Assembly: GCA_038229415.1 (NCBI GenBank)
Contig: JBBROM010000004.1
Span: 210,343-274,342 of the forward strand
DNA: 64,000 bases
Direction of reading: 5' to 3'
Source: Terriglobales bacterium
Lineage (GTDB): Bacteria > Acidobacteriota > Terriglobia > Terriglobales > Acidobacteriaceae
Numbering within the stretch: position 1 is the first letter of the stretch; each line of letters begins with the position of its first letter. Shown one piece after another: positions 8,158-46,176 of this stretch. The translations under genes and the position numbers were made by a program. Below the pieces are notes generated by a model, which saw only the letters and a program-made list of their open reading frames with translations, did not search any database and was not told the origin of the DNA.

Positions 8158-8359
8158 CAGAAGGGATAAAACCGCGCGGGTGCCTCACTCTTGTCCGCTG
8201 TCCGCGTTCTTTTGCGGATAGGGTGGGGTCTTTGCTTGCTGTAGGCGCAGCCCTCTCGCCAATCCAGGCCTAATCGGACTATCCTGAATGGTTGGCGTAC
8301 GCTGGCTGAAGCCGATGGCCGCTGCATTCTATTTCTGCAATTTCCTGAAGGAGACTTTC

Positions 8360-10450
8360 GTGAAGATCACTCGCTGCTTTTTGCTCGCTATACTCTGTCT
8401 CACGCTCAGCAGTCTTGCCCTTGCCGATGAGGGCATGTGGCTGCTGAATGCTCCGCCGCGCGCCCGCATCAAGGCCAAGTACCACTTTGACGTGACGCCC
8501 GCCTTCCTGGAAAAACTGCAACTCGGCTCGGTGCGCTTTAACAATGGCGGCTCCGGCTCGTTCGTTTCGCCGGACGGCCTCGCCTTCACCAACCATCATG
8601 TGGGCCGCGTTTGCCTGCAGCAGCTTTCGACGGCCGCAAAAGACTTCATCAAGGACGGCTTCTACGCGAAGACGCAAGCCGAGGAAGGCAAGTGTCCTGA
8701 CCTTGAATTGAATGTGCTGCAGAAGATTGAGGACGTGACCGCGCAAGTGCAGGGCGCAGCCAAGCCCGGCATGAGCGACGCCGAAGCCGGACAAGCCCAG
8801 CGCGCCATGCAGACTGAAATCGAAGGCGATTGCAACAAGAAGACCGGGCTGCGTTGCGACGTTGTCACGCTTTATGCTGGCGGTGCTTATCACCTCTATC
8901 AGTACAAGAAGTACACCGACGTGCGCGTGGTATTCGCACCGGAAGCGCAGATGGCGTTCTTCGGCGGCGATCCTGACAATTTTGAGTATCCGCGCTACGA
9001 TCTCGACATCTGTTACTTCCGCGTCTACGAGAACGACAAGCCGGTACATCTGGAACATTATCTGGAATGGGCCAAGCGAGGCGTGAAAGATGGCGACTTG
9101 ATTTTTGTCTCCGGACACCCTGGCCGCACCGAGCGCCTGCTGACCATGGCTGAGCTCAACTTTCTAAAAGATGTACAGACCCCGCTCTTGCTCGACGTTC
9201 TGACCCAGCGCGCGCATATGTTGCACGACTTCGCCAACATGTCGGCGGAAAATGCACGAGTTTCGAGCGATGATTTGTTTGGCATTGAAAATTCGCTCAA
9301 GGCCTTCAAGGGCCGCAATCTTGGCCTGCATGACGCCGAACTGATGGGCGGAAAAGCCGAGGCGGAAGCCAAACTTCGCAAGGCGATTGACGCTGACCCC
9401 AAACTAAAGGCGGCCTATGCGGGCGCATGGGAAGCGACGGCCAAGGCGGTGGAAACAGAACGCCGTATCTATATGCCCTACTACTTTCTCGACCGGGCGT
9501 CGGGCAACCTAGTGGGCGATTTGATGGGCGACGCCAAGGCTCTGGTGCGGGTTACTGCGGAAAAGCAGAAGCCCAGTGCCAAACGTCTGCGCGAGTATGG
9601 TGATGCTCGACTTGCTTCGTTCGAGCAGGGACTGCTCTCCGAAGCGCCTGTCTACAAGTCGCTGGAAGAAGCGTCGCTGAAGAATTGGCTAAGCATGGCG
9701 CAAGCCAAGTTGGGCAATGACAATGCTGTGTTGCAAAAGATTCTGCAGGACCGCACTCCGGAAGCTGTGGCGAAAGATGCGATTGCCAACACCAAGCTCG
9801 ATCAGGTTGCCGTCCGCAAGCAGCTTTACGAGGGTGGGCCGGATGCCATCGCGGCGAGCAATGATCCGCTGATCGTGATTGCGCGGACGATTGATCCTGA
9901 CACGCGCGGGCTGCGCAAGCAGTTTGAGGATGAAGTGGATTCGGTGATCCGCCAGAACTCAACGCAGATTGCCAAGGCGCGCTTTGCGGTGCTGGGCACT
10001 GACACTTATCCCGACGCTACGTTCACTCTGCGACTGAGCTATGGCGTAGTCAAAGGCTACAGCGTGGACGGCAAGACGATTGCGCCGCTGACCAACATGG
10101 GCGGTGCTTTTACTCACGCCGCTGAAAACGGCAACAAAGACCCGTTTGAATTGCCGAAGAGTTGGTTCGACGCGAAGAGCAAACTGGATCTAAAAACGCC
10201 GTTCAACTTCGTCTCCACAGCGGACATTATTGGCGGCAACTCTGGTTCGCCGACGGTGAATCGCAAGGGCGAAGTCGTTGGCATCATCTTTGACGGCAAC
10301 ATTCAGTCGCTGCCGTGGGACTTCGCCTACGAAGACAAGGTGGGTCGTGCCGTCAGCGTAGATTCACGGGCGATTCTGGAATCCATGCGCAAGATTTATC
10401 ACGCCGATGCGTTGGCCAATGAACTGGAAGGCAAGGCCAAATCGAAGTAG
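8360..10450 (+). CDS. S46-family peptidase (dipeptidyl-peptidase 7/11-like)
   Basis: GTG at 8360 lies 8 nt after ggagac. A signal peptide is followed by the hallmark ADEGMWL. His block FTNHHV and Ser block GGNSGSP are present. The tracked ORF start at 8288 is probably an upstream extension. Confidence 0.9.
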   Translation: MKITRCFLLAILCLTLSSLALADEGMWLLNAPPRARIKAKYHFDVTPAFLEKLQLGSVRFNNGGSGSFVSPDGLAFTNHHVGRVCLQQLSTAAKDFIKDGFYAKTQAEEGKCPDLELNVLQKIEDVTAQVQGAAKPGMSDAEAGQAQRAMQTEIEGDCNKKTGLRCDVVTLYAGGAYHLYQYKKYTDVRVVFAPEAQMAFFGGDPDNFEYPRYDLDICYFRVYENDKPVHLEHYLEWAKRGVKDGDLIFVSGHPGRTERLLTMAELNFLKDVQTPLLLDVLTQRAHMLHDFANMSAENARVSSDDLFGIENSLKAFKGRNLGLHDAELMGGKAEAEAKLRKAIDADPKLKAAYAGAWEATAKAVETERRIYMPYYFLDRASGNLVGDLMGDAKALVRVTAEKQKPSAKRLREYGDARLASFEQGLLSEAPVYKSLEEASLKNWLSMAQAKLGNDNAVLQKILQDRTPEAVAKDAIANTKLDQVAVRKQLYEGGPDAIAASNDPLIVIARTIDPDTRGLRKQFEDEVDSVIRQNSTQIAKARFAVLGTDTYPDATFTLRLSYGVVKGYSVDGKTIAPLTNMGGAFTHAAENGNKDPFELPKSWFDAKSKLDLKTPFNFVSTADIIGGNSGSPTVNRKGEVVGIIFDGNIQSLPWDFAYEDKVGRAVSVDSRAILESMRKIYHADALANELEGKAKSK

Positions 10451-33039: not shown

Positions 33040-33621
33040 TTACTTCGCGGCGGGCCGCGTGGCAGCCAACTCAAGGGTGATGGCGACTTCATCCGCGACA
33101 ACGGCTCCGCCACCATCCAGTGACTTGCTCCAGCTCACGCCGAAGTCCTGGCGGTTGACTTTGGTCGTCGCCGTCGCACCAATGTTAATGCTGCCCATTG
33201 CCGAAACCTCGGGTGTCGGGCCATCCACATTCAAGACCACTTCCTTCGTCGTCCCGTGCATCGTCAGGTCGCCTTTGACCTTGAGCGCGCCACCATCCAT
33301 GTAAAACTGCTTGCTCTTGAAGGTGATGGTCGGGTACTTGGCGGCATCGAAAAAGTCCGGGCTCTTCAGGTGGCCATCGCGTTGCGGTTGACCGGTGTTC
33401 ACGGTGGAGACGTCCATGGAAGCTTCCACTTTGCTGGCGGCCAGGTTCTTGGGGTCGTAGGTGATAGTGCCGGTTACGTTCCCAAACGTTCCCTTCACGT
33501 TGGACACCATCAAGTGGCGGACGGAAAACTCCGCCGACGAGTGGGCCGTGTCAATCTTGTAGTCAGCCGCCAGCGCCATGCTGGGGATCAGGAACAGCAG
33601 TGCAGCAAGTCTCAAACGCAT
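33040..33621 (-). CDS. YceI-family periplasmic (polyisoprenoid-binding-like) protein
   Basis: A signal peptide is followed by YKIDTAHSSAEFSVRHLMVSNVKGTF and LTMHGTTKEVVL blocks typical of YceI. Confidence 0.85.
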   Translation of the reverse strand: MRLRLAALLFLIPSMALAADYKIDTAHSSAEFSVRHLMVSNVKGTFGNVTGTITYDPKNLAASKVEASMDVSTVNTGQPQRDGHLKSPDFFDAAKYPTITFKSKQFYMDGGALKVKGDLTMHGTTKEVVLNVDGPTPEVSAMGSINIGATATTKVNRQDFGVSWSKSLDGGGAVVADEVAITLELAATRPAAK

Positions 33622-33684
33622 AGTGTTTCTCCTTATGATTCAAACATCCTTGGTCAGACAAACAGTTGTTGTTGTGGACTGGAA

Positions 33685-34275
33685 TCAGGCTCCAGCCCCG
33701 TCAAGGTCTGCACTGGCTGCCGATTTATCTTCGGCAGGACAAGCATCTCGTGTTTCCCACGCCCCTCGTGCTTTGGTGAGCAAGCCAATGAGCTGCGTCA
33801 CCTCACACTCCGTCAGACGTGCCATTACCGAAACGTCCGCATCATCCATGCGAGAATCCAGTTGGGCCAGGACGCTCGATCCGTGGCAGGTGAGTGAACA
33901 GTTCACCTGCCGCCGATCCAGCGACTCGCGTTCGCGAGAAATCAGGCCCTTGGCGGCCATTTTGTCGAGCAGCCGAGTCATGGCTGGCACTCGCGTCGTC
34001 ATGCGCTCACGAATCTGACAAACCGCAGCCCCGCGGGGCCCTGCTCCTCGCAGAATTCTCAGAATGTTGTATTGCTCGGGAGTCAGGTCAAAGGGAGCTA
34101 AGGTCCGGCTTAGCGCATCCCGCAATTCGGTCGCGCTTCGGAGTACGGTATAGATCGCTTCATGTTGCGGGGAACGGAATCTGGGTCCGTGGCATGGTCC
34201 TGGCGGAGCACCTTCCGGGACAGCCGTGGCAATTGCTGCTGCACTCTGCCCGCTATCTGCCAAATCTGCCTGCAT
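33685..34275 (-). CDS. MarR-family transcriptional regulator
   Basis: Winged-helix blocks LTPEQYNILRILRGAG...ICQIRERMTTRVPAMTRLLDKMAAKGLISRERESLDRRQV. It lies 63 nt upstream of the YceI gene on the same strand. Confidence 0.85.
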   Translation of the reverse strand: MQADLADSGQSAAAIATAVPEGAPPGPCHGPRFRSPQHEAIYTVLRSATELRDALSRTLAPFDLTPEQYNILRILRGAGPRGAAVCQIRERMTTRVPAMTRLLDKMAAKGLISRERESLDRRQVNCSLTCHGSSVLAQLDSRMDDADVSVMARLTECEVTQLIGLLTKARGAWETRDACPAEDKSAASADLDGAGA

Positions 34276-34439
34276 ATCGGAATAGATGACCGGTCATACA
34301 ATTTGATGCAGAAAATTGCACCTCAGGCAAAGAATTTTGTAACTCTTTACCCTTTAAATGGTAATAGACGGCCTAGCAAGGCAGCCGGCTGCTTTTTGGG
34401 GGCCTCTGGGAACGTACGCACATATGACTTCTCCCAACG

Positions 34440-34471
34440 AAAAAGCCCTTGAGGATTGCTCCTCAAGGGCT
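34440..34471 (-). terminator. Rho-independent terminator closing the 42.6-34.5 kb minus-strand gene array
   Basis: Perfect 12-bp stem agcccttgagga / tcctcaagggct with a 4-nt loop. On the minus strand it is followed by TTTTT. It lies 22 nt after the stop codon at 34493. Confidence 0.85.
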
Positions 34472-34492
34472 CCGATTCCAAGTTGGAATGGC

Positions 34493-36220
34493 TTACTGTA
34501 GCGCATCCTGCGTAACCTTGATCGCGCAGTAGTTGTTGGACCCGCACTGGGCAGCGGTGCTGGTGGAACGCGTTCCGAAGTAGACGCCGTTGGTGCCCGG
34601 GGCGCCGCCCTTCAGGTAGTCCAGCACAAAGGCGCTGGTGCCGCCCAGCATTCCGGTTGCGGAAGCCGTCGGAGTTGCGCTGGTCGAGGTGATGGGTGTG
34701 TTGATGGACCACGAGGTCAGCAGGTTGCTGCCCGTGGTGTTGGTGCCTGTGCCCGTACCCACATAGAGACGGTCATTCGTTCCATCGGACAAGGTGACGA
34801 TGGGTGAACAGTGCCCGGCAGGCTGAGCGGAAGTGTTGACGTTCGCGTTGCCCATTAATGTCGCTGTGGTGTTCAACACGCCGCTGCCGTTGAAGTTGCC
34901 CGCGTACAGCGCTGGAACCCCCGATGTGCTGCCCGAAAGACCGCAAGCGTACAAGGAGCCGCCAGCGGGGCCGGTGGACAGGTAGTTGTTATCGAAGTTT
35001 GCGCCGAGAACATAGCCAGCAGCCGGAACGCTGCCGATCGCCAAATCCACGTGCGAGCTAAGATCGAGCGGCATCTGCGAGATGATCGGGTGAGCATTGG
35101 CCACATCCGCTGCGGACGCGATGTAAACCCAACCGTTGAACGGATCCACAGCGACCGAATCCACGATCGAGGGATTGGTGTAGCCCTTGTTTGCACCCAC
35201 CTGGATTGAGGAGGAAAGTGCAAAACCAGTGCTGCTGCTAAACGTATACGAGAAGACCTTGGCCCCATCAGAAATGTAGATTTTGCCGTGTTGGGCGTCA
35301 TATACCGGCGAAGTCAGCTGCGAATTGGTGGTCACAATCGTGCAGAAGTCTACCGTCGGCGTTCCGTTAAAAACGCCGCTGACGTGATACAGGCGACCAT
35401 TGTTGGCACCCATGAATGCTCCATCGCTGGTGTAATCAATGTAAGGGGAAGAACCGAAGTTGTCCGCCTTGAGCAGCCCCGTGCAGCCTGGGACCCTGGC
35501 ATTCGTATAGTCCAGCGAAACCAGTGCGCCCGCCGAAGGGGCAACCGAGCCCGTGGTGGCATTGGTGCCTTGGCCAGTGGTCAAGGTGAGTACCTCGAAG
35601 AGTGCGCGATGGCGGCTCACTGACGACACCACAAACGCCGCCTTCTTTCCATCCAGCGACAATTCCGGAGAAAGGAAGATGCCACCGTCATCCACGGCAT
35701 AGGAGAACGCGAAATTCGGAGCCGTGCCGGTGCAGGAGGAGCCGTTCGCTCCGGCATACAGATTGTTGAGACCAACAAGATTGGCCTGCACGCCAGCTGC
35801 CGGTGAAACCGTCCCCGGAGTAGAGATTGCAAATAAGATAAAGTCACTGGTGCAGGCACCAGGGAAGCTCGGCGTCGTGTTCGCGGTGTACTTGGCCGGG
35901 AACTCGCCTTCGGGCAAACCGCGGCTGGTTGCTTTTGGTCCTAGTGAGATGGACCATTCCACTGGCGTCGCAGGGGCTGGAGCATTGGGGCGGACTGCGC
36001 CTGACTTCAAATCGCGCAACGCCAAGGCTTGCTGCAAGCGCGGGTCCTTATTCGCTGCGACCACTGCGGCATGGCCGGAAATTGCGGGGAGTACACGATT
36101 CGTGCTCCAGCTTTGCACTGAACTGGTGGAGCGGGAGGCGGATTGTGCCGATGCACACACCGCGCTCAACAACAGCCCACAGCCAGCAAAAGCCACTAAA
36201 ACTTTTCGGGGGTTCAGCAT
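34493..36220 (-). CDS. Secreted hypothetical protein (Thr/Ser/Gly-rich, probably beta-rich)
   Basis: Strong RBS ggagga 8 nt upstream and a signal peptide (VLVAFAGCGLLLSAVCASAQ). I recognise no family. Confidence 0.75.
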   Translation of the reverse strand: MLNPRKVLVAFAGCGLLLSAVCASAQSASRSTSSVQSWSTNRVLPAISGHAAVVAANKDPRLQQALALRDLKSGAVRPNAPAPATPVEWSISLGPKATSRGLPEGEFPAKYTANTTPSFPGACTSDFILFAISTPGTVSPAAGVQANLVGLNNLYAGANGSSCTGTAPNFAFSYAVDDGGIFLSPELSLDGKKAAFVVSSVSRHRALFEVLTLTTGQGTNATTGSVAPSAGALVSLDYTNARVPGCTGLLKADNFGSSPYIDYTSDGAFMGANNGRLYHVSGVFNGTPTVDFCTIVTTNSQLTSPVYDAQHGKIYISDGAKVFSYTFSSSTGFALSSSIQVGANKGYTNPSIVDSVAVDPFNGWVYIASAADVANAHPIISQMPLDLSSHVDLAIGSVPAAGYVLGANFDNNYLSTGPAGGSLYACGLSGSTSGVPALYAGNFNGSGVLNTTATLMGNANVNTSAQPAGHCSPIVTLSDGTNDRLYVGTGTGTNTTGSNLLTSWSINTPITSTSATPTASATGMLGGTSAFVLDYLKGGAPGTNGVYFGTRSTSTAAQCGSNNYCAIKVTQDALQ

Positions 36221-36300
36221 ATTATTTTTCCTCCACGGAATTTCTGCATTCGATCAGTAATCTGATTCTCGCGCCGACAGCCAGAACATCTTAAGAACGT

Positions 36301-37437
36301 CTACGCGCTCACGCCGGATTGTGCCGCCGGCATAGATGGGATACGAATTTGCACCAACGGCACGGAAAGGCCTCCGCTGACGCCTAAAGACTGCAAGCGA
36401 AGCATATTGGCCGAAGGAATCGCGGTTCGCTGGTAGGACTTTTCACAGTCTGCCACCGAGGGGCCCCGCATATTGCCTTCCATGTACGCCAAACCTGGGC
36501 ACCGCGTGCAGGTGCCTACATGAGAACAGCCGGAACAAACCGTCAAGTCGCGCGCGCGAATTGAGCGCACTTCGTTCAGTTGGTCCGAGTGCTGCCAGAT
36601 ATCGAGAAAGCGCTGTTGGCGAACGTTGCCACTGGGTAGCGGAAACTGCACACACGGATAAACGTCACCGTACGGCGAAACATAGCAAGCCGAATGTCCG
36701 GCGCTGCACGGGATGCCATCCAAGACGTCATCATCAGGCGCGGGCGGCGGGGCGCAAAACTCCACCGAATTCCCTACTACTTCATCGTCGCGAAAAATCT
36801 TGTGCAGTTGGTCGCCAGACGCGCGCAGCGCCAGCAGGGAGCGGTCCCCATCCATCTTGGGCGTAATCGTTGGGTCGAGCTGATAGCCGACGCCGAGCTC
36901 TTCTGCAAGTTTTTTCGCGCCCAGATAGTCGTCGGCGTTGTGCGTCATCAGCACATTGGCGATGGTGACTTTGAGGCCCTGTTCCTTCAGGAATTTGATC
37001 GCCCGTACGGTGCGTTCCCACGAACCCTTCACCAGGGTGATGGCATCATGTACTTCGGCGCGGTGGGAGTAGACGCTGATGTTGATCTGTTCCACACCCA
37101 GTTCGCGCAACTGCTGCGCCTGTTTTTCCTTGATCAGCACCGCATTCGTCTTGACCTTGACGTTGAACAGCAGCTTGCGGGCATAGGCGACCAGCTCAAG
37201 GAAATCCTTGCGCAGAAAAACTTCGCCGCCGCTAAAGGTGAGGAAGAATGTACCTGCCGCCGCCAGCTCGTCCAGCAAATGCTTGATCTCGTCGGTGGTC
37301 ATCTCGCCGTGGTCATCATGGTCGAGATAGCAGTGGACGCAACGCTCATTGCAGCGGTAGGTCACATCCACATGGACATTGATCGGGACACCGTATCCGA
37401 TGGCCTTCTGCGACATTTCTCCGATCAGTTGACCCAT
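36301..37437 (-). CDS. Radical SAM / SPASM-domain peptide maturase
   Basis: The CxxxCxxC cluster is in VTYRCNERCVHCY. The C-terminal SPASM-type Cys-rich region is CSAGHSACYVSPYGDVYPC...CSGCSHVGTCTRCPG. Confidence 0.9.
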   Translation of the reverse strand: MGQLIGEMSQKAIGYGVPINVHVDVTYRCNERCVHCYLDHDDHGEMTTDEIKHLLDELAAAGTFFLTFSGGEVFLRKDFLELVAYARKLLFNVKVKTNAVLIKEKQAQQLRELGVEQINISVYSHRAEVHDAITLVKGSWERTVRAIKFLKEQGLKVTIANVLMTHNADDYLGAKKLAEELGVGYQLDPTITPKMDGDRSLLALRASGDQLHKIFRDDEVVGNSVEFCAPPPAPDDDVLDGIPCSAGHSACYVSPYGDVYPCVQFPLPSGNVRQQRFLDIWQHSDQLNEVRSIRARDLTVCSGCSHVGTCTRCPGLAYMEGNMRGPSVADCEKSYQRTAIPSANMLRLQSLGVSGGLSVPLVQIRIPSMPAAQSGVSA

Positions 37438-37443
37438 GTTTTT

Positions 37444-37755
37444 CTACTCCACGTAGCCGGCCGCGTTGGTCGCGATCGGCTGGTCCGACACCAGCAAAAT
37501 TCCATGCTCCGAAAGGTCGCTGACAAATGCCTCAGCATCGCGCAACGCCTCTTCCGGCGAAACCTCAAACTCCTGGCAAACCCGGCCCGTCACAATTTCA
37601 TGCAGCGGCGTCTTGCCATCTGCTGCCAGCCAAACCGTGACTGCAACAGGATTCAGCGTGAAAAACTTGGAGTCTACCGCCGACATAATCATCATCTCGT
37701 CGCCCAGTTGACGGGCGGCGATGCGGGCACTGCGCGCGATGTAAGTCTGCGTCAT
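37444..37755 (-). CDS. PqqD-family peptide chaperone (RRE domain)
   Basis: 103 aa. LGDEMMIMSAVDSKFFTLNPVAVTVWLAADGKTPLHEIV...FEVSPEEALRDAEAFVSDLSEHGIL matches the PqqD fold pattern. Its stop codon lies 6 nt before the rSAM start. Confidence 0.85.
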   Translation of the reverse strand: MTQTYIARSARIAARQLGDEMMIMSAVDSKFFTLNPVAVTVWLAADGKTPLHEIVTGRVCQEFEVSPEEALRDAEAFVSDLSEHGILLVSDQPIATNAAGYVE

Positions 37756-37855
37756 CCATTCATCCTAACGACCGTTCCAAACTGGGAACAGCCCACAACC
37801 GGGCTATTCGTATCCCCAACCGAGCCACCATTGCCCACGAAAGTGGGACAAGCGA

Positions 37856-38668
37856 CTAGCCAATCAAATCCCACACCCGTTCGTCGGGATAAAAGTTCAG
37901 CCGACGCACCGGCACCCGCTCTAAAAACGCACACGCCCCGGCGAAGACCCGGTTTACCAGTTCCTCGTCCCGTGCGAAGAACAAAATATTTCTCATCAGC
38001 ATGCGCAGTGCTTCAGCCCGAGGAATCTCCTCAAAGTGGTTCGAGTCACCCTTGCCGAGAAAATACAGCGCCTCGATTGGCCCGGATGTATTCACACCCG
38101 GCGTACCCATCTCTCCGGCGAATGGCGTCCCGTAGGCCACGTATCCGTTTCCGTCGCCCATCCTGCGGATATACGACGCTTCATCCGTAAGCACCGAAGC
38201 GTCGGGAGGGGCTAGCCGCGAAATCGTGGTCTTGCCTGCAGTTGAGACACCCGAAAATAGAAATGCCTTGCCGTTTCGTACCACGCTCGCCGCATGCAGA
38301 AGAAAGCCGCCCTCTTGTGCCAGTGCCAGCGAATGCACGATGCGCAGCACAGAATCAATGGCATAGGGCGTCAGGGTCTGCGTGATGCGGCCTTGGCGAG
38401 TACGCGAGTCCCATTCCGCGCGAAAGTCGCCACGCTCCATGCGCCAGAGGCTTCCCTCCGCAGTTACGCTAACGTCGGCATCCGGATCGGCTAGCGCGGC
38501 GCCGTCAATTACTGTGATCTCAAACTCATAACCGGGCTCCCGGCCACTGCCAGCAAAGGTGCCGAAACGGGACTCCAGCAGTGGAATCAGCCGCGCATCC
38601 TCTGAGCGGAGCAGAACGGCAATGCCCCCGATCTCGACGACGACTTCGGCTGCCATGGTGGAATTCAC
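37856..38668 (-). CDS. HPr-kinase-related (HprK-like) serine kinase
   Basis: LHAASVVRNGKAFLFSGVSTAGKTT is the HprK C-domain P-loop context. The GTG start overlaps the upstream stop codon (GTGA). An alternative ATG lies four codons downstream. Confidence 0.8.
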   Translation of the reverse strand: MNSTMAAEVVVEIGGIAVLLRSEDARLIPLLESRFGTFAGSGREPGYEFEITVIDGAALADPDADVSVTAEGSLWRMERGDFRAEWDSRTRQGRITQTLTPYAIDSVLRIVHSLALAQEGGFLLHAASVVRNGKAFLFSGVSTAGKTTISRLAPPDASVLTDEASYIRRMGDGNGYVAYGTPFAGEMGTPGVNTSGPIEALYFLGKGDSNHFEEIPRAEALRMLMRNILFFARDEELVNRVFAGACAFLERVPVRRLNFYPDERVWDLIG

Positions 38669-39237
38669 GAATTCTCCGTGCGGTGCAAGCCGCTCACAAC
38701 GACGTGCGACGATGCGTTGTGCTTACTGTATGACTGCTTAGCCTGATACCGCTTATCCCAAAAACATTGAAGGCGGAGGGCAATCGTTCTTACCATGAGC
38801 GATCGGCGGAGGCACTCGGCTAGCCAGGAACGTTTGCGGATCGCGTAAGAAAGTGCCTGCACAGCACCGCGCCGCTCCCTGTGTGTCACCAGCCCCAGCA
38901 GACCTTCCGGGGGCAATGCCGGATCATCCCATTCCAGAAAGTCTCCCCGGCAGACCACCGTACGCATTCCGTCTTCGCCCAACCGCACGATTCTGTGGAC
39001 AACCAACCGCCCACGCTGACGGCTTAGCCACACCTGACCCACCAGCGCTTCGCGCGAGGGAATCGCCTTCACGCGCAGCACGTCGCTTGGCCAAATCGCT
39101 GGCAGCATGCTGGTGCCGTGTGCTCGGAAGCGCAACTCACCGAAGCTGCGCAGCGCTTCTTCGGCCAGGGCGCACCCCGCCAAATCGTGCTCTTCCGGGA
39201 AAGCTATGACTACGAATTCTTTCGGTTGAAGTTGCAC
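38665..39237 (-). CDS. S26-family signal-peptidase-like protease, SipW/archaeal (Ser/His) type
   Basis: The nucleophile block is GTSMLPAIWPSDVL. LVVHRIV stands where bacterial P-type enzymes have the catalytic Lys box (His instead of Lys). The GTG start overlaps the last 28 nt of the precursor ORF. Confidence 0.7.
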   Translation of the reverse strand: MQLQPKEFVVIAFPEEHDLAGCALAEEALRSFGELRFRAHGTSMLPAIWPSDVLRVKAIPSREALVGQVWLSRQRGRLVVHRIVRLGEDGMRTVVCRGDFLEWDDPALPPEGLLGLVTHRERRGAVQALSYAIRKRSWLAECLRRSLMVRTIALRLQCFWDKRYQAKQSYSKHNASSHVVVSGLHRTENS

Positions 39238-39380
39238 TGCGAACCGCCAGCTGGCGTCTTACCGCAGGCCAACGCCATGGTTTCAAACACTTCTTCGTAG
39301 CGATATTCAGGCTTGGCGTATTGCTTTTTTTCGGTCGGAACTGCGACCGTCGTTCCTGAGGTGGCGTTGAGCTTTTCCAT
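39210..39380 (-). CDS. Candidate RiPP precursor peptide, 56 aa (not in the supplied ORF track)
   Basis: Hand translation gives MEKLNATSGTTVAVPTEKKQYAKPEYRYEEVFETMALACGKTPAGGSQCNFNRKNS followed by a stop. aaggag lies 11 nt upstream of the ATG and an in-frame TAA lies 6 codons upstream. It sits at the head of the maturase operon. Confidence 0.7.
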   Translation of the reverse strand: MEKLNATSGTTVAVPTEKKQYAKPEYRYEEVFETMALACGKTPAGGSQCNFNRKNS

Positions 39381-39448
39381 GATCCGAGGATCTCCTTAGT
39401 CTTGGGTTTGCCTCATTGCGGGCAGAGACGAGACCCGTTTTGAAACTG

Positions 39449-39481
39449 ATTATATCTATTTCGGGAAAAATTCCTTATCAA
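39449..39481 (-). promoter_or_regulatory. Candidate promoter hexamers in the AT-rich gap upstream of the precursor ORF
   Basis: On the minus strand there is a TTGATA (39481-39476) and a perfect TATAAT (39454-39449), but they are 21 nt apart. A TAGATA lies at the canonical 17-nt spacing. The assignment is tentative. Confidence 0.3.
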
Positions 39482-39584
39482 ATTTTACAATTCCTGTGAA
39501 TCGTATGGACTTTAGGCTCAGAGAGGGTGGAATCAGTAAATACAGGCTAGAAGAAAGGGGCGGGATTCCAGGATAGGGATAACT

Positions 39585-40409
39585 CTAGTAATAAGCCAGC
39601 GATCCCCGGCGTCTAGCGGAACGCAGCGCCAGATCGAAGGCAAACCATCCTAAGGGAAGCAGAAGACAGCCGGAGGCAAGCTGTGCCAATTCAGGAAATA
39701 GCTGACCAGGACTGCTCCCCGAGAGCAGGGCTGCCCTCATACACGTCAGCGCTTGGGTCAACGGAAACGCTCGTGCCCACCACTGCAAGGGGCCGGGCAA
39801 CGCACTCACCGGGAACAGCGTTCCCGTCATCATCCACGTAGCGGTGCCGATGGCCCACAGAATGGCGCTGCCGCGCTGGATTGCCAGCTGCACGGCCGCT
39901 GCGATCAGGCCCAAGCCCACCACGATCACCAGCGAGAGAAGCAATACAATCAACACGCTCCAAGGATTCGCCGCCCCGAGGGACGCTCCGAAGAAGATCG
40001 CTCCGCCAAGCAGATAGAGAAACATCCCAAACGCGCTGCTCAAGAAAGAGGCGAACGCACTTAGCAGCACCAGCACCGTAGGCGAAGTAGAGGTGGTCAT
40101 CAGGACTTCCAGCATTCCCGTAGTTTGGGCTTCTTGAATCAGATTTAGAAACGCGCTGATGCCGTTTAGCAGGAAGCTGTAAAAGCCGGTGCCAACCAGT
40201 AAAAAGAGGAAGTAGTCATGCCCTTCGGGCCGATAACCTGCACCAATCGAACGCGCAAGAAAAAAGAAAACGGCCAGCTCCGCTAGATGCGTGAGCGCCG
40301 AAAGGGCGAATCCAGCGGGATAACGCAGAGCGGTGAGTATGGCTCGGCGTAACACCGCCACCATCTTGTCGGCTAGTAGCGCGACCGAGCGACTCAGGCG
40401 AGGAATCAT
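39585..40409 (-). CDS. ABC-2-type transporter permease
   Basis: 274-aa protein with six hydrophobic segments. Its ATG overlaps the stop codon of the upstream ATPase gene (ATGA). Confidence 0.8.
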   Translation of the reverse strand: MIPRLSRSVALLADKMVAVLRRAILTALRYPAGFALSALTHLAELAVFFFLARSIGAGYRPEGHDYFLFLLVGTGFYSFLLNGISAFLNLIQEAQTTGMLEVLMTTSTSPTVLVLLSAFASFLSSAFGMFLYLLGGAIFFGASLGAANPWSVLIVLLLSLVIVVGLGLIAAAVQLAIQRGSAILWAIGTATWMMTGTLFPVSALPGPLQWWARAFPLTQALTCMRAALLSGSSPGQLFPELAQLASGCLLLPLGWFAFDLALRSARRRGSLAYY

Positions 40410-41293
40410 GCCGGGCCTCCCGTTGGTGCTGAATTAGAGGAAGAGGCAGCAGGCGGCTCAGGCGGCCCGTCCACTCCATCGCCAATTGCTAGATCGAGTT
40501 CATCGAGCAATGGGTTCCCTATCCGGCCACAGGCCCGAAAATAGGTCTCGCGAAGCGAGGACGAGTTGCGGCCCGAGGGACGGTCGTCATGATGAACCAT
40601 GCGGCCTTGTTGCAGGATTGCGACCTCGTCGGCTACCGCGGCAGCTTCTGTAAAGCTGTGGGTCGCCAGCAGGATGGTTGTTCCCTGCTGCGCCAGCGCG
40701 CGCACCAAGTGCCAGAACTGCTCGGCCGAGCCGGGGTCGAGACTGCGTGTAGGTTCATCGAGCAGCAAAATCGGAGGGCGCTTGAGCAAGGCGCGAGCGA
40801 GGCCCAGACGCTGCGTCATGCCGCTGGAAAACTTCATGACCAGCTTGCCGGAAGCATCGTTCAGGCCAGCGAGCGCGAGCGATTCCGCAACGCGGCGCGT
40901 GCGGGTCGCGCGGGGCACTTCTTCCAGCGCGGCGAAGAACTCGAGATTCTCTTCCGCCGTAAGCCGGGGGAAGAACGACCGCTCGTGAACCAGCACGAAA
41001 CCGACCCGTTGGCGCACGGCCTGATCTTCGTGAACCGTGTCATGGCCCTGCACCAGAATGCTACCCTCGTCAGGAAACAGAATGGAGGACACCATTTTCA
41101 GGGTTGTGGTTTTGCCGCTGCCGTTCGGGCCAAGTAGGACGAGGATACGTCCCGGAGCAAGGCGGAAGCTCAGGTCGCGAACTGCCCATTCTGGCTCCGT
41201 GAGAGCTAGCTCACGGTGCGGCCAAGGCAGCCAACTGCCGCCGCGCCGGTAGCGCTTGCTCACCGCGTTCAGGATGATCGCTTCAAATGCCAT
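40406..41293 (-). CDS. ABC transporter ATP-binding protein
   Basis: Walker A GPNGSGKTT, signature FSSGMTQRL and Walker B ILLLDEPT. I prefer the Met at 41293 (MAFEAIILNAV) to the tracked start at 41311. The C-terminal tail is Pro/Ala/Ser-rich. Confidence 0.9.
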   Translation of the reverse strand: MAFEAIILNAVSKRYRRGGSWLPWPHRELALTEPEWAVRDLSFRLAPGRILVLLGPNGSGKTTTLKMVSSILFPDEGSILVQGHDTVHEDQAVRQRVGFVLVHERSFFPRLTAEENLEFFAALEEVPRATRTRRVAESLALAGLNDASGKLVMKFSSGMTQRLGLARALLKRPPILLLDEPTRSLDPGSAEQFWHLVRALAQQGTTILLATHSFTEAAAVADEVAILQQGRMVHHDDRPSGRNSSSLRETYFRACGRIGNPLLDELDLAIGDGVDGPPEPPAASSSNSAPTGGPA

Positions 41294-41404
41294 GGGGAGG
41301 AAAGGCCGCACTGCTTCGCGCCAGCGCGAGCACGTGCGAACGACCTATTATAGGTCTGGCTCGCAGGCGCAGCGGCTAGAAGGGTACGGTTCTAGTAAGG
41401 AAAT

Positions 41405-42583
41405 ATGAAATCTGATTCCAAAACAGAATCGCGGTCCAAGCTAACTCCCGAGTTTGCTTTATTGCTGCGGGCGGTGTCGCTAGACGCGTGTGAGGGCGAA
41501 TCAAAGCTCGCTGCGAACAACGACTGGCCTCGCCTGGCTGATCTGGCCGATGCTCATGGCCTTTCCGTGCGGCTGGGTGGATTGCTGCAACGGTATCAGG
41601 ATCAGGTTCCGGCGGAACTGCTTGAGGCATTGGCCCGCGAAACCGCGGCCAATGCTCGGCGCAATCTCGAATTCACGCAGCGTTTGCTGAGAATTGTGAA
41701 TGCACTGGCGGAAGTGGGCGTCCCTGCGCTGGCCTATAAAGGCCCGGTGCTGGCAGAGATGCTCTATGGCAGTCAACCGCTGCGCGAGTTCCGCGATGTG
41801 GATGTACTCATCCGGCCTGAAGACTGGCCAAGCGCCAAGCAGCGCATGATCGCGCTTGGGCTCACGCCGAACCAGAGCTTTACCGTTGGGCAAGAAGCGG
41901 CTTACGTCCGCTCGAACAACGAGATGGCGTTTGACGGTTGGGGTGCCCGCAACTGGCTGGAGATTGAATGGGCCATTGTGCCGCGCTACTTTAGTGTGGA
42001 GATGCGGGTGGAGGATTTACTGGCGCGATCGGTAGAATTTTCGCTGGCGGGCGCGATGGTGCGAACGCTCTGCGCGGAAGACACGCTGCTGGCGCTGGCG
42101 GTGCATGGCAGCAAGCATGGCTGGTCACGACTGTGCTGGGTGGCCGACATCGCCGACCTGTTGCGAGTTCGCGAGTTGGATTGGGATGTGGTGTTAAGAG
42201 AAGCGGAACGATTAGGAGTGATGCGTATGGTGCGCGTGGCGTTGCGCTTGGCGGCGCAGGTGAATCCGGGCATGCGTGCAGATTTGCCTTTGAACACTAT
42301 TGCGGAACAGCAAGCTGTGGATGGATTGGCGGGGGAATTTTGGCGCGCGTTGCAATATGAGCCGCAGCGCTATACGCAGGAGTCGTGGCGATACTTTCTG
42401 ATGATGCCGCGCTTGCGCGAACGCGGCGGTGATCGTTTGCGATTTGTGTGGCGTCTGCTGGCGACGCCGGAAACTGGGGAGTGGAAGTTGGTGAGTCTGC
42501 CGGATTCGCTTTACGGGCTTTACTATCCGTTGCGGGGATTACGGCTGGCGATGAAGCTGTTGCGGAGGCTGTTGCGGTTCTAG
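41405..42583 (+). CDS. Nucleotidyltransferase-family protein (NTP_transf_5 type)
   Basis: The blocks ALAYKGPVLAEMLYGSQPLREFRDVDVLIRPEDW and LALAVHGSKHGW are characteristic of the uncharacterised nucleotidyltransferases found beside PqqD/HprK-like pairs. It is divergent from the ABC genes. Confidence 0.75.
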   Translation: MKSDSKTESRSKLTPEFALLLRAVSLDACEGESKLAANNDWPRLADLADAHGLSVRLGGLLQRYQDQVPAELLEALARETAANARRNLEFTQRLLRIVNALAEVGVPALAYKGPVLAEMLYGSQPLREFRDVDVLIRPEDWPSAKQRMIALGLTPNQSFTVGQEAAYVRSNNEMAFDGWGARNWLEIEWAIVPRYFSVEMRVEDLLARSVEFSLAGAMVRTLCAEDTLLALAVHGSKHGWSRLCWVADIADLLRVRELDWDVVLREAERLGVMRMVRVALRLAAQVNPGMRADLPLNTIAEQQAVDGLAGEFWRALQYEPQRYTQESWRYFLMMPRLRERGGDRLRFVWRLLATPETGEWKLVSLPDSLYGLYYPLRGLRLAMKLLRRLLRF

Positions 42584-42935: not shown

Positions 42936-42975
42936 TTTGCGCTATCCTCAAGAGTTCTCTGGGAGGGCCTTTTTC

Positions 42976-45900
42976 ATGAAGCAATTTCGCGGACTTGTCG
43001 AATCCGTCACTGCGTTTTCTGCCGTTATTCTTGCCACGCTTTCTCTGGTCGCATTCTTCCCTGCAAGCAGTGCGGCGCAGGATGTGACCTCGCTCTACAG
43101 CGACATGCACTGGCGCATGATTGGACCGTTCCGCGCCGGGCGGACGGTTGCGGGTGCGGGCATTCCCACCCAGCCCTGCGTATTTTATGTGGGCCCAAAT
43201 AACGGCGGCGTGTGGAAGACGGACGACTGCGGCAACACTTGGCAGTCGGTGTTTGAGGGCAACACGCAATCGGTGGGGGCGCTGGCGATTGCGCCGTCGA
43301 ATCCTGACATTATCTATGTCGGCAGCGGTGAGGGATTGCGCCGCCCTGATCTTTCCATCGGCGACGGCATGTACAAGACGACCGATGCAGGCAAAACGTG
43401 GACGCATCTCGGCCTGCGCGACGGCCAGCAGATTGGCGCGATCATCGTGGATCCGAAGAATCCTGACCGGCTATTCGTTGCGGTGCTGGGGCATCCTTAT
43501 GGCCCTAATGTGGAGCGTGGAATTTTCCGCTCGCTCGATGGAGGGCAGACGTTCACCAAAGTGCTTTACAAGAACGACATTCTTGGCGGCATTGATCTCG
43601 CCTTCGATCCGCGCGACAGCAGGAAGATTTATGCGTCGCTTTGGGCTTCGATGCGCACGCCGTGGTGGTGGGGAAATAATCTTGAAGGTCCGGGCAGTGC
43701 GCTCTATAAGTCTGACGATGGCGGCGAAACTTGGCGCGAGTTGAACAAGGGCTTTCCGGAAAAGCATAACCGGATCAGTATCACGATTGCGCCGTCGAAC
43801 CCCGACCGCATGTACGCGACTGTGGATGTAAGCGACGCCGGCGGCGTCTATCGCTCGGACGATGCCGGCGAGAGCTGGACGCTGGTTAACTCCGAGGAAC
43901 GCGTGGTTGGGCGCAACTCGGACTTTGCGTGGATTCGCGTTCATCCGAAAGATGCTGACACGATTTACATCAGCAATACTTCGACGTATAAATCCACGGA
44001 CGGTGGCAAGACGGTGACCGCGATCAAGGGTGCTCCGGGCGGCGACGACTATCATGCGACGTGGATCAATCCGCTGAATCCCGACATCATGCTGCTGACG
44101 GTGGATCAGGGCGCAGTCGTTACTGTGAATGGTGGCAAAACGTGGAGCAGTTGGTACAACCAGCCCACGGCGCAGATTTATCATGTGGCGACGGACAATC
44201 AGTTTCCGTATTGGGTCTATGGTTCGCAGCAGGATAGCGGCTCGGTTGGCACGACGAGTCGCAGTGACTACGGGGGCATCACGTTCCGCGACTGGCATCC
44301 CATTGGCATTGAAGAGTACGGCTACGTGGCACCCGATCCGCTGCATCCTGATATTTTGTATGGCGGCAAGTTTACCAAGTTTGATCGCCGCACGGGACAG
44401 GTGCAGGATGTGAGTCCGTGGGTGATTCGTACGGGCAAGTATCGGCTGAATCGTTCGCAACCGGTGATGTTCAATCCGGTGGATCCGCACATTCTCTACT
44501 TCGGTTCGCAGGTGCTGTTTGAAACGCGCGATGGCGGGCACAGTTGGAAAGAAATTTCTCCGGATCTGAGTCGCCCGGAGCCGGTGACGCCCGCGACGGT
44601 CGGCCCTGAGTTTGTAAACAACGATCCGCTCAAAGGCATTCATCATGGAGTGATTTATTCCATCGCACCTTCACCGAAGGATGTGAACCTGATTTGGGCT
44701 GGCACCGATGATGGCCTGGTACACGTGACCCGCGACGGCGGCAAAAAGTGGGAGAACGTTACGCCGCCCGAGATGACGGCGTGGAGCAAAGTGACGCAGA
44801 TGGATGCGGGACATTTCGATGCAAAAACTGCATACATTTCGGTGAGCCGCTTCCGGCTGGATGATCTGCACGCCTATATTTATCGCACGCACGACGGCGG
44901 CAAGACCTGGCAGAAGATCACCAATGGAATTTCGGATGACGCAGCGGTGGATGCGGTGCGCGAAGATCCGGAGAAGCCTGGGCTGTTGTTTGCGGGCACC
45001 GAGCGTGCCATGTGGGCCAGCTTCGACGATGGCGACCATTGGCATTCCCTGCAAATGAACCTGCCGCTCACCGCAATGCGCGATTTCGTGATCCACGGCG
45101 ACGACATTGTGGTGGGCACGCATGGGCGATCCTTCTGGATTCTCGACGACATCACACCACTGCGCCAGATCAAGGAAAGCGACTTCAGCAAGACTCGACT
45201 GTTTGCGCCGCAACTAGCGACGCGGATTCGTCGGAGTACGTATCCTGACACGCCGCTACCACCCGAGACGCCGATGGGGCAGAATCCGCCGGATGGCGCG
45301 GTGATTGACTACTTTCTGAAAGATGGGGCGAAGCAGGTGACGATTCAGATCGTAGATTCGGAAGGCAATGTGGCGAGGACGTATTCCAGCGATGACAAGC
45401 CGGAGCCGGTGAACGAGAAGGAACTCAACGTCCCGCTGTATTGGGTGCGGTACGAGAAGACGCTGCCCAACACGGTTGGCATGCATCGCTGGCATTGGGA
45501 TTTGAGCTATGCGCGTCCGAAGGGGCTGGACACGGAGTATCCCATCAGCGCGATTCCGCACGATACGCCCAACGAACCGCTGGGGCCGAGTGCGCTGCCT
45601 GGTCAATATCTAGTGCGGCTTATTGTAGACCACGCTGTGATGCAACAGCCACTCAAGGTGCGAATGGATCCGCGAGTGCTGGCTACAGCGTCTGATCTGA
45701 AGGCCATGTTTGATGCACAGCAAGAAGCGGCCACGCAGATCGCCAAGAACAACGACACTTTGGCCGAGGTTCGTAATTGGAAGAAGCAACTGCGTGAACT
45801 GGCTGGTGTGCCTGAACCGCTTCGCGACAAGGCACATGACCTTGCCGACAAGCTGGAGAAATTAGAGAAAGGCAACGGAACCCGTGAGCCGGGCATTCTT

Positions 45901-46176
45901 GCTTCGAAGGGCATGGCGACAATGCACGGCTGGCTGAACCAGGTGTATGGCTCGCTGGGCAGCGCTGATACCGCGCCCACTGCGCAAGCGCTGGCAATGC
46001 TGCAGGAGCTGGAGAAAGTTTCTGCCGAGCAGATCGCGCAACTTGATCCACTACGCGGCACACTTAAGGAAGTGAACGAACAGTTGCGTAGTGCGGGAAA
46101 GCCAGAGATTGCGCTGATGCGCGGCGGCGAATCGGGTGCAACACAAATTCACGGAGCGGAAAAGGCAGAGGAGTAG
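42976..46176 (+). CDS. Secreted BNR/Asp-box repeat protein (sortilin/VPS10- or GH74-like double beta-propeller)
   Basis: RBS gggaggg 8 nt upstream and a signal peptide. Asp-boxes recur: TTDAGKTW, SLDGGQTF, SDDGGETW, SDDAGESW, STDGGKTV, VNGGKTW, TRDGGHSW, TRDGGKKW, THDGGKTW. Confidence 0.85.
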   Translation: MKQFRGLVESVTAFSAVILATLSLVAFFPASSAAQDVTSLYSDMHWRMIGPFRAGRTVAGAGIPTQPCVFYVGPNNGGVWKTDDCGNTWQSVFEGNTQSVGALAIAPSNPDIIYVGSGEGLRRPDLSIGDGMYKTTDAGKTWTHLGLRDGQQIGAIIVDPKNPDRLFVAVLGHPYGPNVERGIFRSLDGGQTFTKVLYKNDILGGIDLAFDPRDSRKIYASLWASMRTPWWWGNNLEGPGSALYKSDDGGETWRELNKGFPEKHNRISITIAPSNPDRMYATVDVSDAGGVYRSDDAGESWTLVNSEERVVGRNSDFAWIRVHPKDADTIYISNTSTYKSTDGGKTVTAIKGAPGGDDYHATWINPLNPDIMLLTVDQGAVVTVNGGKTWSSWYNQPTAQIYHVATDNQFPYWVYGSQQDSGSVGTTSRSDYGGITFRDWHPIGIEEYGYVAPDPLHPDILYGGKFTKFDRRTGQVQDVSPWVIRTGKYRLNRSQPVMFNPVDPHILYFGSQVLFETRDGGHSWKEISPDLSRPEPVTPATVGPEFVNNDPLKGIHHGVIYSIAPSPKDVNLIWAGTDDGLVHVTRDGGKKWENVTPPEMTAWSKVTQMDAGHFDAKTAYISVSRFRLDDLHAYIYRTHDGGKTWQKITNGISDDAAVDAVREDPEKPGLLFAGTERAMWASFDDGDHWHSLQMNLPLTAMRDFVIHGDDIVVGTHGRSFWILDDITPLRQIKESDFSKTRLFAPQLATRIRRSTYPDTPLPPETPMGQNPPDGAVIDYFLKDGAKQVTIQIVDSEGNVARTYSSDDKPEPVNEKELNVPLYWVRYEKTLPNTVGMHRWHWDLSYARPKGLDTEYPISAIPHDTPNEPLGPSALPGQYLVRLIVDHAVMQQPLKVRMDPRVLATASDLKAMFDAQQEAATQIAKNNDTLAEVRNWKKQLRELAGVPEPLRDKAHDLADKLEKLEKGNGTREPGILASKGMATMHGWLNQVYGSLGSADTAPTAQALAMLQELEKVSAEQIAQLDPLRGTLKEVNEQLRSAGKPEIALMRGGESGATQIHGAEKAEE

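Follow-up and report, generated by a model that had tools for sequence, protein, structure and literature searches.

The window analysed here is a stretch of 64,000 nucleotides from a Terriglobales bacterium of the family Acidobacteriaceae (GenBank assembly GCA_038229415.1, contig JBBROM010000004.1, positions 210,343 to 274,342 of the forward strand). On its minus strand lie a gene for a peptide of 56 amino acids (39210-39380) and, directly downstream, one for a 190-residue protein that resembles a signal peptidase (38665-39237). The pair raises the question of whether a signal-peptidase-type enzyme can be the leader peptidase of a ribosomally made, post-translationally modified peptide (RiPP) and, if so, where it cuts its precursor. 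An earlier note on this DNA had proposed cleavage after the Ala-X-Ala motif A36-L37-A38, releasing an 18-mer with an N-terminal Cys. Our comparisons place the protein near LppS, the leader peptidase of the linear polyphosphorylated peptides (LPPs) of Bacillota, and suggest that the cut falls four residues further upstream, after F32-E33-T34.

The peptidase and its relatives

The peptidase gene begins with GTG. There are just two alternative starts, TTG at codons 19 and 35, and either one would cut into the predicted N-terminal helix. The closest homologs begin with MQLQP, but these conserved residues arise when the precursor tail QCNFNRK, itself conserved, is read in the +1 frame, and so give no independent support for the start codon. 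The motifs G41-T-S43-M-L-P46 and L78-V-V-H81-R-I-V84 are as the earlier note had read them, as are the 56-residue precursor, its A36-L37-A38-C39 segment, the 18-mer as residues 39 to 56, and the overlap of the two genes. In all 17 diverse family members compared, G-T-S43-M-L-P-A-I-W-P, H81-R82, G98-D99 and D105 are invariant. The predicted catalytic residues are Ser43 (39109-39111), His81 (38995-38997), Asp99 (38941-38943) and Asp105 (38923-38925).

Single-sequence searches were insufficient to place the protein: phmmer against PDB sequences returned only noise, a Pfam scan returned nothing at E <= 0.01, and the match to TIGR02228 (17.7 bits) falls below that model's cutoff of 51.85. A family profile, in contrast, matched human SEC11C (E 4e-7) and SEC11A (E 2e-6) when compared with all PDB sequences, with the Ser box, the "vaHRv" (IVHRV) box and the "trGD....D" box in register, while LexA, UmuD and the bacterial Ser/Lys signal peptidases were all absent from its matches. 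TIGR02228 matched each of the 17 members (best E 8.6e-15), TIGR02754 matched 10 of them weakly, the SipW model nine, and the LexA model one. The Ser, His-Arg and Gly-Asp(x5)Asp boxes correspond to those of Sec11 and SEC11A/C, Bacillus subtilis SipW and archaeal signal peptidase I. By these sequence matches the protein is a homolog of the ER/archaeal/SipW-type (S26B) peptidases, with the Ser/His arrangement that had been proposed for it and an Asp in addition.

No transmembrane segment is predicted in the peptidase; its highest 19-residue Kyte-Doolittle window reaches 0.87, against the usual threshold of 1.6, and the N-terminus is a polar helix. The sequence is that of a soluble, cytoplasmic relative and not of a membrane signal peptidase. 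Two further differences from the S26B enzymes lie in the substrate, predicted to be the leader of a RiPP instead of a Sec signal peptide, and in the specificity, which by homology is likely to be for F-E-T and not for small-x-small. A dedicated S26-family protease that removes the N-terminal propeptide of one substrate is also known in SodX, the maturation protease of the nickel superoxide dismutase (TIGR02754). However, the matches to TIGR02754 are much weaker than those to TIGR02228, and SodX is not known to have a comparable context of kinase, radical S-adenosylmethionine (SAM) enzyme or RiPP recognition element (RRE). SodX is also of the Ser/Lys type.

In an AlphaFold2 model of the peptidase (pLDDT 69.6), built from an 8-sequence alignment, a beta core follows one N-terminal helix and precedes two C-terminal helices. 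A Foldseek search with this model recovered the clan SF (LexA/signal-peptidase) fold, with LexA C-domains first (E 4e-4), SEC11C in 30th place and SipA among the top matches. The modelled structure alone does not separate family S24 from S26. A LexA-type (S24) autopeptidase was nevertheless rejected and the Foldseek ranking set aside, because the catalytic Lys of that family is replaced by an invariant His and the sequence profiles favour S26B. LexA, UmuD and lambda cI share the beta fold, but the window protein lacks their DNA-binding domain and self-cleavage loop: the stretch ahead of the Ser box is only about 40 residues long, a single helix with no conserved AG or CG self-cleavage site, and domain scans gave no helix-turn-helix family match. 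A better alignment to LexA/S24 autopeptidases, which the earlier note had named as counter-evidence, is not what the sequence profiles show.

The family is large. A word-indexed search found only 8 relatives and understates it; an exhaustive search returned thousands, with 376 representatives (50% identity clusters) at E <= 1e-30 and 5,229 at E <= 1e-10, and the members sampled from it all retain the Ser, His-Arg and Gly-Asp boxes. In some homologs (L043, from 463 onward, and P0007) the His-Arg and Arg-Gly-Asp boxes are separated by a long low-complexity insertion with many Ser, Glu, Val and Arg residues.

The closest characterised counterpart comes from the LPP system of Bacillota described by Popov et al. 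(Nat Commun 2026; PMC13381572). Its core genes encode LppS, a SipW-homologous signal peptidase; LppB, a discrete RRE; LppK, an HprK-like kinase; LppN, an NTP_transf_5 protein; and an MsbA-like exporter. Such peptidases were stated there to be previously undescribed in RiPP pathways. Mass spectrometry placed the LppS cut after F(-3)-E(-2)-T(-1), and cleavage required the RRE. The S29A, H68A and D93A variants were inactive, substitution of F, E or T lowered cleavage whereas core substitutions did not, and deletion of lppS led to accumulation of unprocessed, modified precursor (PMC13381572). With the comparison sequences taken from the supplement of that paper, the window peptidase aligns with LppS at a BLASTP E of 5e-10 (30% identity over 109 aa) and an hhalign probability of 98.7% (E 2e-16), and S43, H81 and D105 coincide with S29, H68 and D93. 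The dedicated leader-peptidase role that had been proposed for the window protein is thereby backed by an experimentally characterised homolog.

Three further genes near the peptidase have LPP counterparts. The adjoining gene (37856-38668, minus strand) encodes a 270-residue HprK-like kinase of the ScmC family, with weak ScmC/HprK-related matches and PF27840 found on its homologs. It aligns end to end with LppK (E 5e-26); since the LppK sequence was reconstructed by OCR of a figure in the supplement, a few of its residues may be in error. A discrete PqqD-type RRE of 103 residues (37444-37755, minus strand; PF05402, E 5e-14), also matched by the lasso-type PqqD chaperone models, is weakly similar to LppB (E 7e-5). 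A divergently transcribed NTP_transf_5 nucleotidyltransferase of the LppN/PsmN family (41405-42583, plus strand; PF14907, E 2e-56) shares a Pfam family with LppN and has weak pairwise similarity to it (E 3e-4). The NTP_transf_5 domain is the "putative NTP transferase" counted in LPP clusters (PMC13381572); in our family its gene occurs at a subset of the related loci and is absent near some.

The site of cleavage

The precursor gene encodes MEKLNATSGTTVAVPTEKKQYAKPEYRYEEVFETMALACGKTPAGGSQCNFNRKNS. Small open reading frames homologous to it adjoin the peptidase or a beta-propeller gene in more than 40 loci, and the conservation counts given below refer to 31 distinct precursor C-terminal halves recovered from related loci. 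The peptidase frame overlaps the end of the precursor frame by exactly 28 nt (39210-39237); elsewhere the junction is either a 28-nt overlap or a gap of 5-27 nt, and the two genes are tightly coupled in every locus with enough flank and an identifiable precursor. A strong AGGAG Shine-Dalgarno sequence lies 5' of the precursor start, and the peptidase GTG has none, an arrangement that fits translational coupling. At six loci with enough upstream flank (L024, L032, L036, L050, L053 and L055), a pattern scan of the region directly upstream of the peptidase found no FET...CGK-type precursor; these loci may have divergent precursors or precursors encoded elsewhere.

The invariant residues of the precursor are the Y and P of a YxKP motif, an E, the F-E pair, A(-3), L(-2), the first Cys (position 0), G and K, and a C-terminal Ser. 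Y21-A-K-P24 (39309-39320; Y and P 31/31, K 30/31) is predicted to bind the RRE, YxxP being the motif class bound by LppB and the lasso RREs (PMC13381572). F32-E33-T34 (39279-39287; F and E 31/31, T 28/31) would form P3-P2-P1 of the leader peptidase site, and the LPP precursors carry the corresponding motif YxxPxVLxHQxIxFETxxS (PMC13381572). A Y..P followed by FET at a distance of 6-12 residues arises in a fraction of 4e-4 of shuffles, and FET at that distance past a fixed YAKP in 4e-3. The homology to LppS and the YxKP...F-E-T arrangement of the precursor together predict a cut between T34 and M35. We consider it probable, with room for doubt, that an RRE-dependent LppS-type peptidase cuts there and releases the 22-mer MALACGKTPAGGSQCNFNRKNS (39213-39278) as part of the full mechanism set out below. 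The boundary of this core is drawn by homology to LppA. The core contains C39-x9-C49, a spacing found in 30 of the 31 precursors with the second Cys ten residues past the first, and ends in Ser56.

Several observations weigh against this reading, in addition to the Foldseek ranking of LexA C-domains above signal peptidases by a model of moderate confidence. A hidden Markov model of 15 LPP leaders scores the precursors of the window family no better than shuffles (11,400 shuffles), so we claim likeness to the LPP leaders at the level of motifs only. The spacer between YxxP and FET is two residues shorter than in LPPs, and Arg replaces Thr at the predicted P1 in 3 of the 31 precursors. The Ser at core position 3 that is phosphorylated in LPPs is absent, since the window core begins M-A-L and has Leu at that position. 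The invariant A, L, C, G and K past the predicted cut might mean that the protease recognises a site further downstream, and F-E-T may be conserved for the sake of the RRE or of the radical SAM enzyme instead of the protease.

The best surviving alternative cut is the one that follows the classical (-3,-1) rule, between A38 and C39 (A36-L37-A38-C39 at 39264-39275), which would give CGKTPAGGSQCNFNRKNS, an 18-mer that starts with Cys. In its favour, the enzyme is genuinely homologous to the S26B type, the site lies at the edge of the invariant C-G-K, and A(-3) is present in 31/31 precursors. Conservation of the motif in homologous precursors had been named as a check on this site, and it stops at the decisive position: at -1, 21 of the 31 have A or S and the other 10 have T, V, I or Q (S13, A8, T5, V3, I1, Q1), so that the small-x-small rule holds in about two thirds of the precursors and is broken in the rest. 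Residue 38 is in fact the sole freely varying position within an invariant block of 10 residues. It switches among A, V and I (L045, L006, L033) and between S and Q (L023, L047) at loci whose peptidases are near-identical around the active site, and no compensating change in the peptidase accompanies these switches. Such variation at P1 is not expected to be tolerated by the S1 pocket of a signal peptidase. The AxA motif is also less telling than it seemed, occurring in 44% of composition-preserving peptide shuffles ([AGS]x[AGS] in 97%), and LppS, the characterised homolog, ignores the small-x-small rule. The prediction of cleavage at Ala-Leu-Ala, attractive as it was, is probably wrong, and we give this site only a slim chance in comparison with the cut after F-E-T.

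Two other sites, C-G and A-L, were considered from the conservation pattern ahead of the LppS precedent, and only a cut between C39 and G40 was retained, as a minor rival with a somewhat smaller chance still. Here P1 (Cys) and P3 (Leu) are invariant and P2 is variable, which resembles the signal-peptidase (-3,-1) geometry, and the pattern of invariant L, variable residue, invariant C and invariant G fits a strand with P3 and P1 buried and P2 exposed. The clan SF fold of the peptidase was confirmed, and UmuD, a member of the same clan as the S26 peptidases, cleaves itself at Cys24-Gly25. However, the window peptidase has His and not the Lys of S24, its nearest characterised homolog cuts after F-E-T, and one of the two invariant Cys residues would be lost with the leader.

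Least probable of all is that the S26-like protein is not the leader peptidase but an idle scaffold like Streptococcus pyogenes SipA, a processor of another protein such as the propeller, or a transpeptidase/cyclase as in the precedent of the S26-type TraF of IncP plasmids: SipA is indeed among the top structural matches and the propeller is co-conserved, but the catalytic residues are invariant across hundreds of relatives, Sec-exported substrates are out of reach of a protein that has neither a membrane anchor nor a signal peptide, and LppS is the proven leader peptidase of a homologous cassette.

A cassette joined to a radical SAM enzyme

The genes of the minus-strand operon are arranged in the order ABC ATPase, ABC-2 permease, precursor, peptidase, kinase, RRE, radical SAM/SPASM enzyme, 575-residue protein and MarR regulator. 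The radical SAM/SPASM peptide maturase (36301-37437, 378 aa) matches Radical_SAM (E 1.5e-27) and SPASM (E 1.3e-11). All of its NCBIfam matches are below cutoff, so it belongs to no named family, and among solved structures the thioether synthase SkfB is closest to it (E 3e-17). The two-gene ABC-2 type exporter (39585-41311) consists of an ATPase (40406-41311) and a permease (39585-40409), which match ABC_tran and ABC2_membrane; it is kept in the close relatives L001-L004 and L010 and in L056.

The same cassette was found in an Acidobacteriaceae metagenome-assembled genome (MAG) and in several metagenome contigs, and searching genomes and metagenomes with the peptidase alignment brought in 46 more loci. 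They come from Acidobacteriota/Terriglobia, Ca. Acidiferrales, Binataceae and deltaproteobacterial MAGs, and from metagenomes of soil and peat. The order peptidase-kinase-RRE-radical SAM enzyme is constant in every locus whose flank is long enough, the radical SAM gene always following that of the RRE.

One locus from a Terriglobales MAG (L056; 1-4325 and 4910-13184) is rearranged, with peptidase, kinase, RRE and radical SAM genes on one strand and the propeller, precursor, ABC-2 and NTP_transf_5 genes beyond. It was missed by the pattern scan because its peptidase box reads GTSMLPAVWP. The L056 cassette abuts glycosyltransferase, PIG-L and NTP-transferase genes, echoing the polysaccharide-locus neighbourhoods that LPP clusters adjoin in Bacillota (PMC13381572).

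With LPP clusters the window cluster shares a soluble SipW-like Ser/His/Asp peptidase whose N-terminus forms a helix, a discrete PqqD RRE, an LppK-type kinase, an NTP_transf_5 enzyme, an exporter and, at the level of motifs, a YxxP...F-E-T leader. LPPs were called restricted to Bacillota (PMC13381572), whereas the window cluster comes from Acidobacteriota and related soil lineages. Its exporter is of the two-gene ABC-2 (DrrAB-like) kind and not MsbA-like. The LPP core is long, variable and rich in Gly and Asn, with Ser3 polyphosphorylated by LppK (PMC13381572), but the window core is short and conserved, contains Cys and ends in Ser. The secreted propeller is co-conserved in the window family. 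The LPP product is linear and carries polyphosphorylation with no other class-defining maturase, a description that the window family, going by its genes, does not match: a radical SAM/SPASM enzyme is invariant in its cassette, and no radical SAM domain appears in the LPP co-occurrence tables. We regard the locus as one that combines a cassette of the LPP type with a radical SAM maturase and a propeller partner, in Acidobacteriota of soil. The peptidase similarity network of Popov et al. includes an uncharacterised cluster of Acidobacteriota, Myxococcota and Chloroflexota beside RREs, with precursors given as "ND" (PMC13381572); the TSMLPA motif of the window's family occurs in none of that cluster's peptidases.

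The mechanism that we propose builds on what the sequences show, namely the homology of the four enzymes, the catalytic residues, the conserved motifs and the linkage of the genes; the cleavage position, the sequence of events, the phosphorylated residue and the radical SAM chemistry are proposals. It runs as follows. The discrete PqqD-type RRE would bind YxKP of the 56-residue precursor and present F32-E33-T34 to the peptidase, docked through its N-terminal helix. The peptidase would then cut between T34 and M35, and not after A36-L37-A38, freeing the 22-mer. Before or around this step, the LppK-like kinase may phosphorylate a Ser, and the NTP_transf_5 enzyme may decorate the phosphate. The radical SAM/SPASM enzyme would modify the C-x9-C core, a thioether being our leading guess for its product on the two Cys residues, and the ABC-2 pump would export the product. 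Ser56 (39213-39215) is the best candidate for the phosphorylated residue. The C-terminal residue is Ser in 31/31 precursors, usually within N-R-K-x-S, and is the only invariant Ser of the family; a C-terminal Ser is likewise the residue polyphosphorylated by the HprK-like kinases of paeninodin and pseudomycoidin, and in pseudomycoidin it is then hexosylated via an NTP_transf_5 enzyme. From these facts we infer Ser56 as the target.

Paeninodin and pseudomycoidin (PadeK/PsmK, PsmN) resemble the window cluster in combining an HprK-like kinase and an NTP_transf_5 enzyme with a precursor that ends in Ser, but the window cluster has neither a lasso cyclase nor a B2 cysteine protease, and between its kinase and the lasso kinases PbaK and BsfK the P-loop alone aligns. 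A lasso peptide was rejected on the absence of the cyclase and the B2 protease and of any Asp or Glu in the core. The SynChlorMet system (ScmC, ScmD, ScmE/F; TIGR04248-04251) also combines a ScmC-like HprK-related protein with a PqqD homolog and radical SAM/SPASM enzymes. The window proteins, however, score far below the cutoffs of its models (38.9 against 125 bits for ScmC, 34.3 against 100 for ScmD and 91.9 against 400 for ScmE/F), and the window has one radical SAM gene instead of two, together with a peptidase and an identified precursor. Literature searches returned only unrelated acronyms for ScmC and nothing for SynChlorMet. Sactipeptides and ranthipeptides are thioether RiPPs in which a radical SAM/SPASM maturase makes S-C crosslinks in a core that contains Cys. 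The window family has a SPASM enzyme and two invariant Cys residues and may belong with them; no named sactisynthase model matches at cutoff, and SkfB is the closest solved structure.

The idea of a signal-peptidase-type leader peptidase is itself no longer new. Such an enzyme was unusual for RiPPs, as the earlier note had it, until May 2026, when the Bacillota system was published; these peptidases entered the RiPP field as a Bacillota trait linked to linear peptides with no modification beyond phosphorylation. Here the same peptidase-RRE-kinase cassette occurs with a radical SAM/SPASM maturase, and does so in Acidobacteriota and further lineages of soil; it points to an unexplored hybrid RiPP class, and to a secreted propeller that may function in connection with the peptide. 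Heterologous production also gains a rule for cleavage that can be tested, namely after F-E-T.

The beta-propeller and flanking genes

The 575-residue protein (34493-36220, minus strand) has no family match. Its AlphaFold2 model (pLDDT 84, pTM 0.86) is a beta-propeller preceded by a signal-like N-terminal helix, which suggests secretion, and its Foldseek matches were generic propellers, among them, at low TM-score, the methylamine dehydrogenase heavy chain. Its 83 homologs are all unnamed. The gene is found in nearly all related loci with enough flank, in three different arrangements. At three recR-linked loci it lies beside one or two precursor genes: in L057 the propeller (8001-9878) precedes a precursor at 10006-10179, in L058 the propeller (7001-8905) precedes one at 8975-9154, and in L059 the propeller (7001-9427) is accompanied by two precursor paralogs (9491-9658 and 9818-10009). 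No peptidase, kinase, RRE or radical SAM genes were found within 7-8 kb at these three loci. The pairing of precursor and propeller at these loci and across arrangements suggests that the peptide and the propeller work together.

The precursor peptide is also unusually conserved across Acidobacteriota, Binataceae and deltaproteobacterial MAGs. A mature peptide made in the cytoplasm through radical SAM crosslinking, phosphorylation and leader removal of the signal-peptidase type, exported by the ABC-2 pump and assembled outside as the dedicated partner (subunit, cofactor carrier or ligand) of the Sec-exported propeller, and not a free antibiotic, would have a parallel in the QhpC/QhpD/QhpE/QhpF route to quinohemoprotein amine dehydrogenase. 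We think this role rather unlikely.

The MarR-family regulator at the end of the operon (33685-34275, minus strand; MarR match 1.2e-11) is syntenic only in the close relatives L001-L005 and L010. A promoter and terminator scan of 33500-41700 gave nothing above shuffles. Beyond the NTP_transf_5 gene lies a gene for a 1079-residue protein with BNR/sortilin-Vps10-type repeats (42937-46176, plus strand), which is syntenic in the closest relative, L001. Near the start of the window, two copies of the Acido-Lenti-1 small RNA motif (RF01687) were found on the plus strand at 1057-1105 and 2892-2941, scoring 40.5 and 38.6 bits, above the gathering score; they are consistent with an acidobacterial origin.

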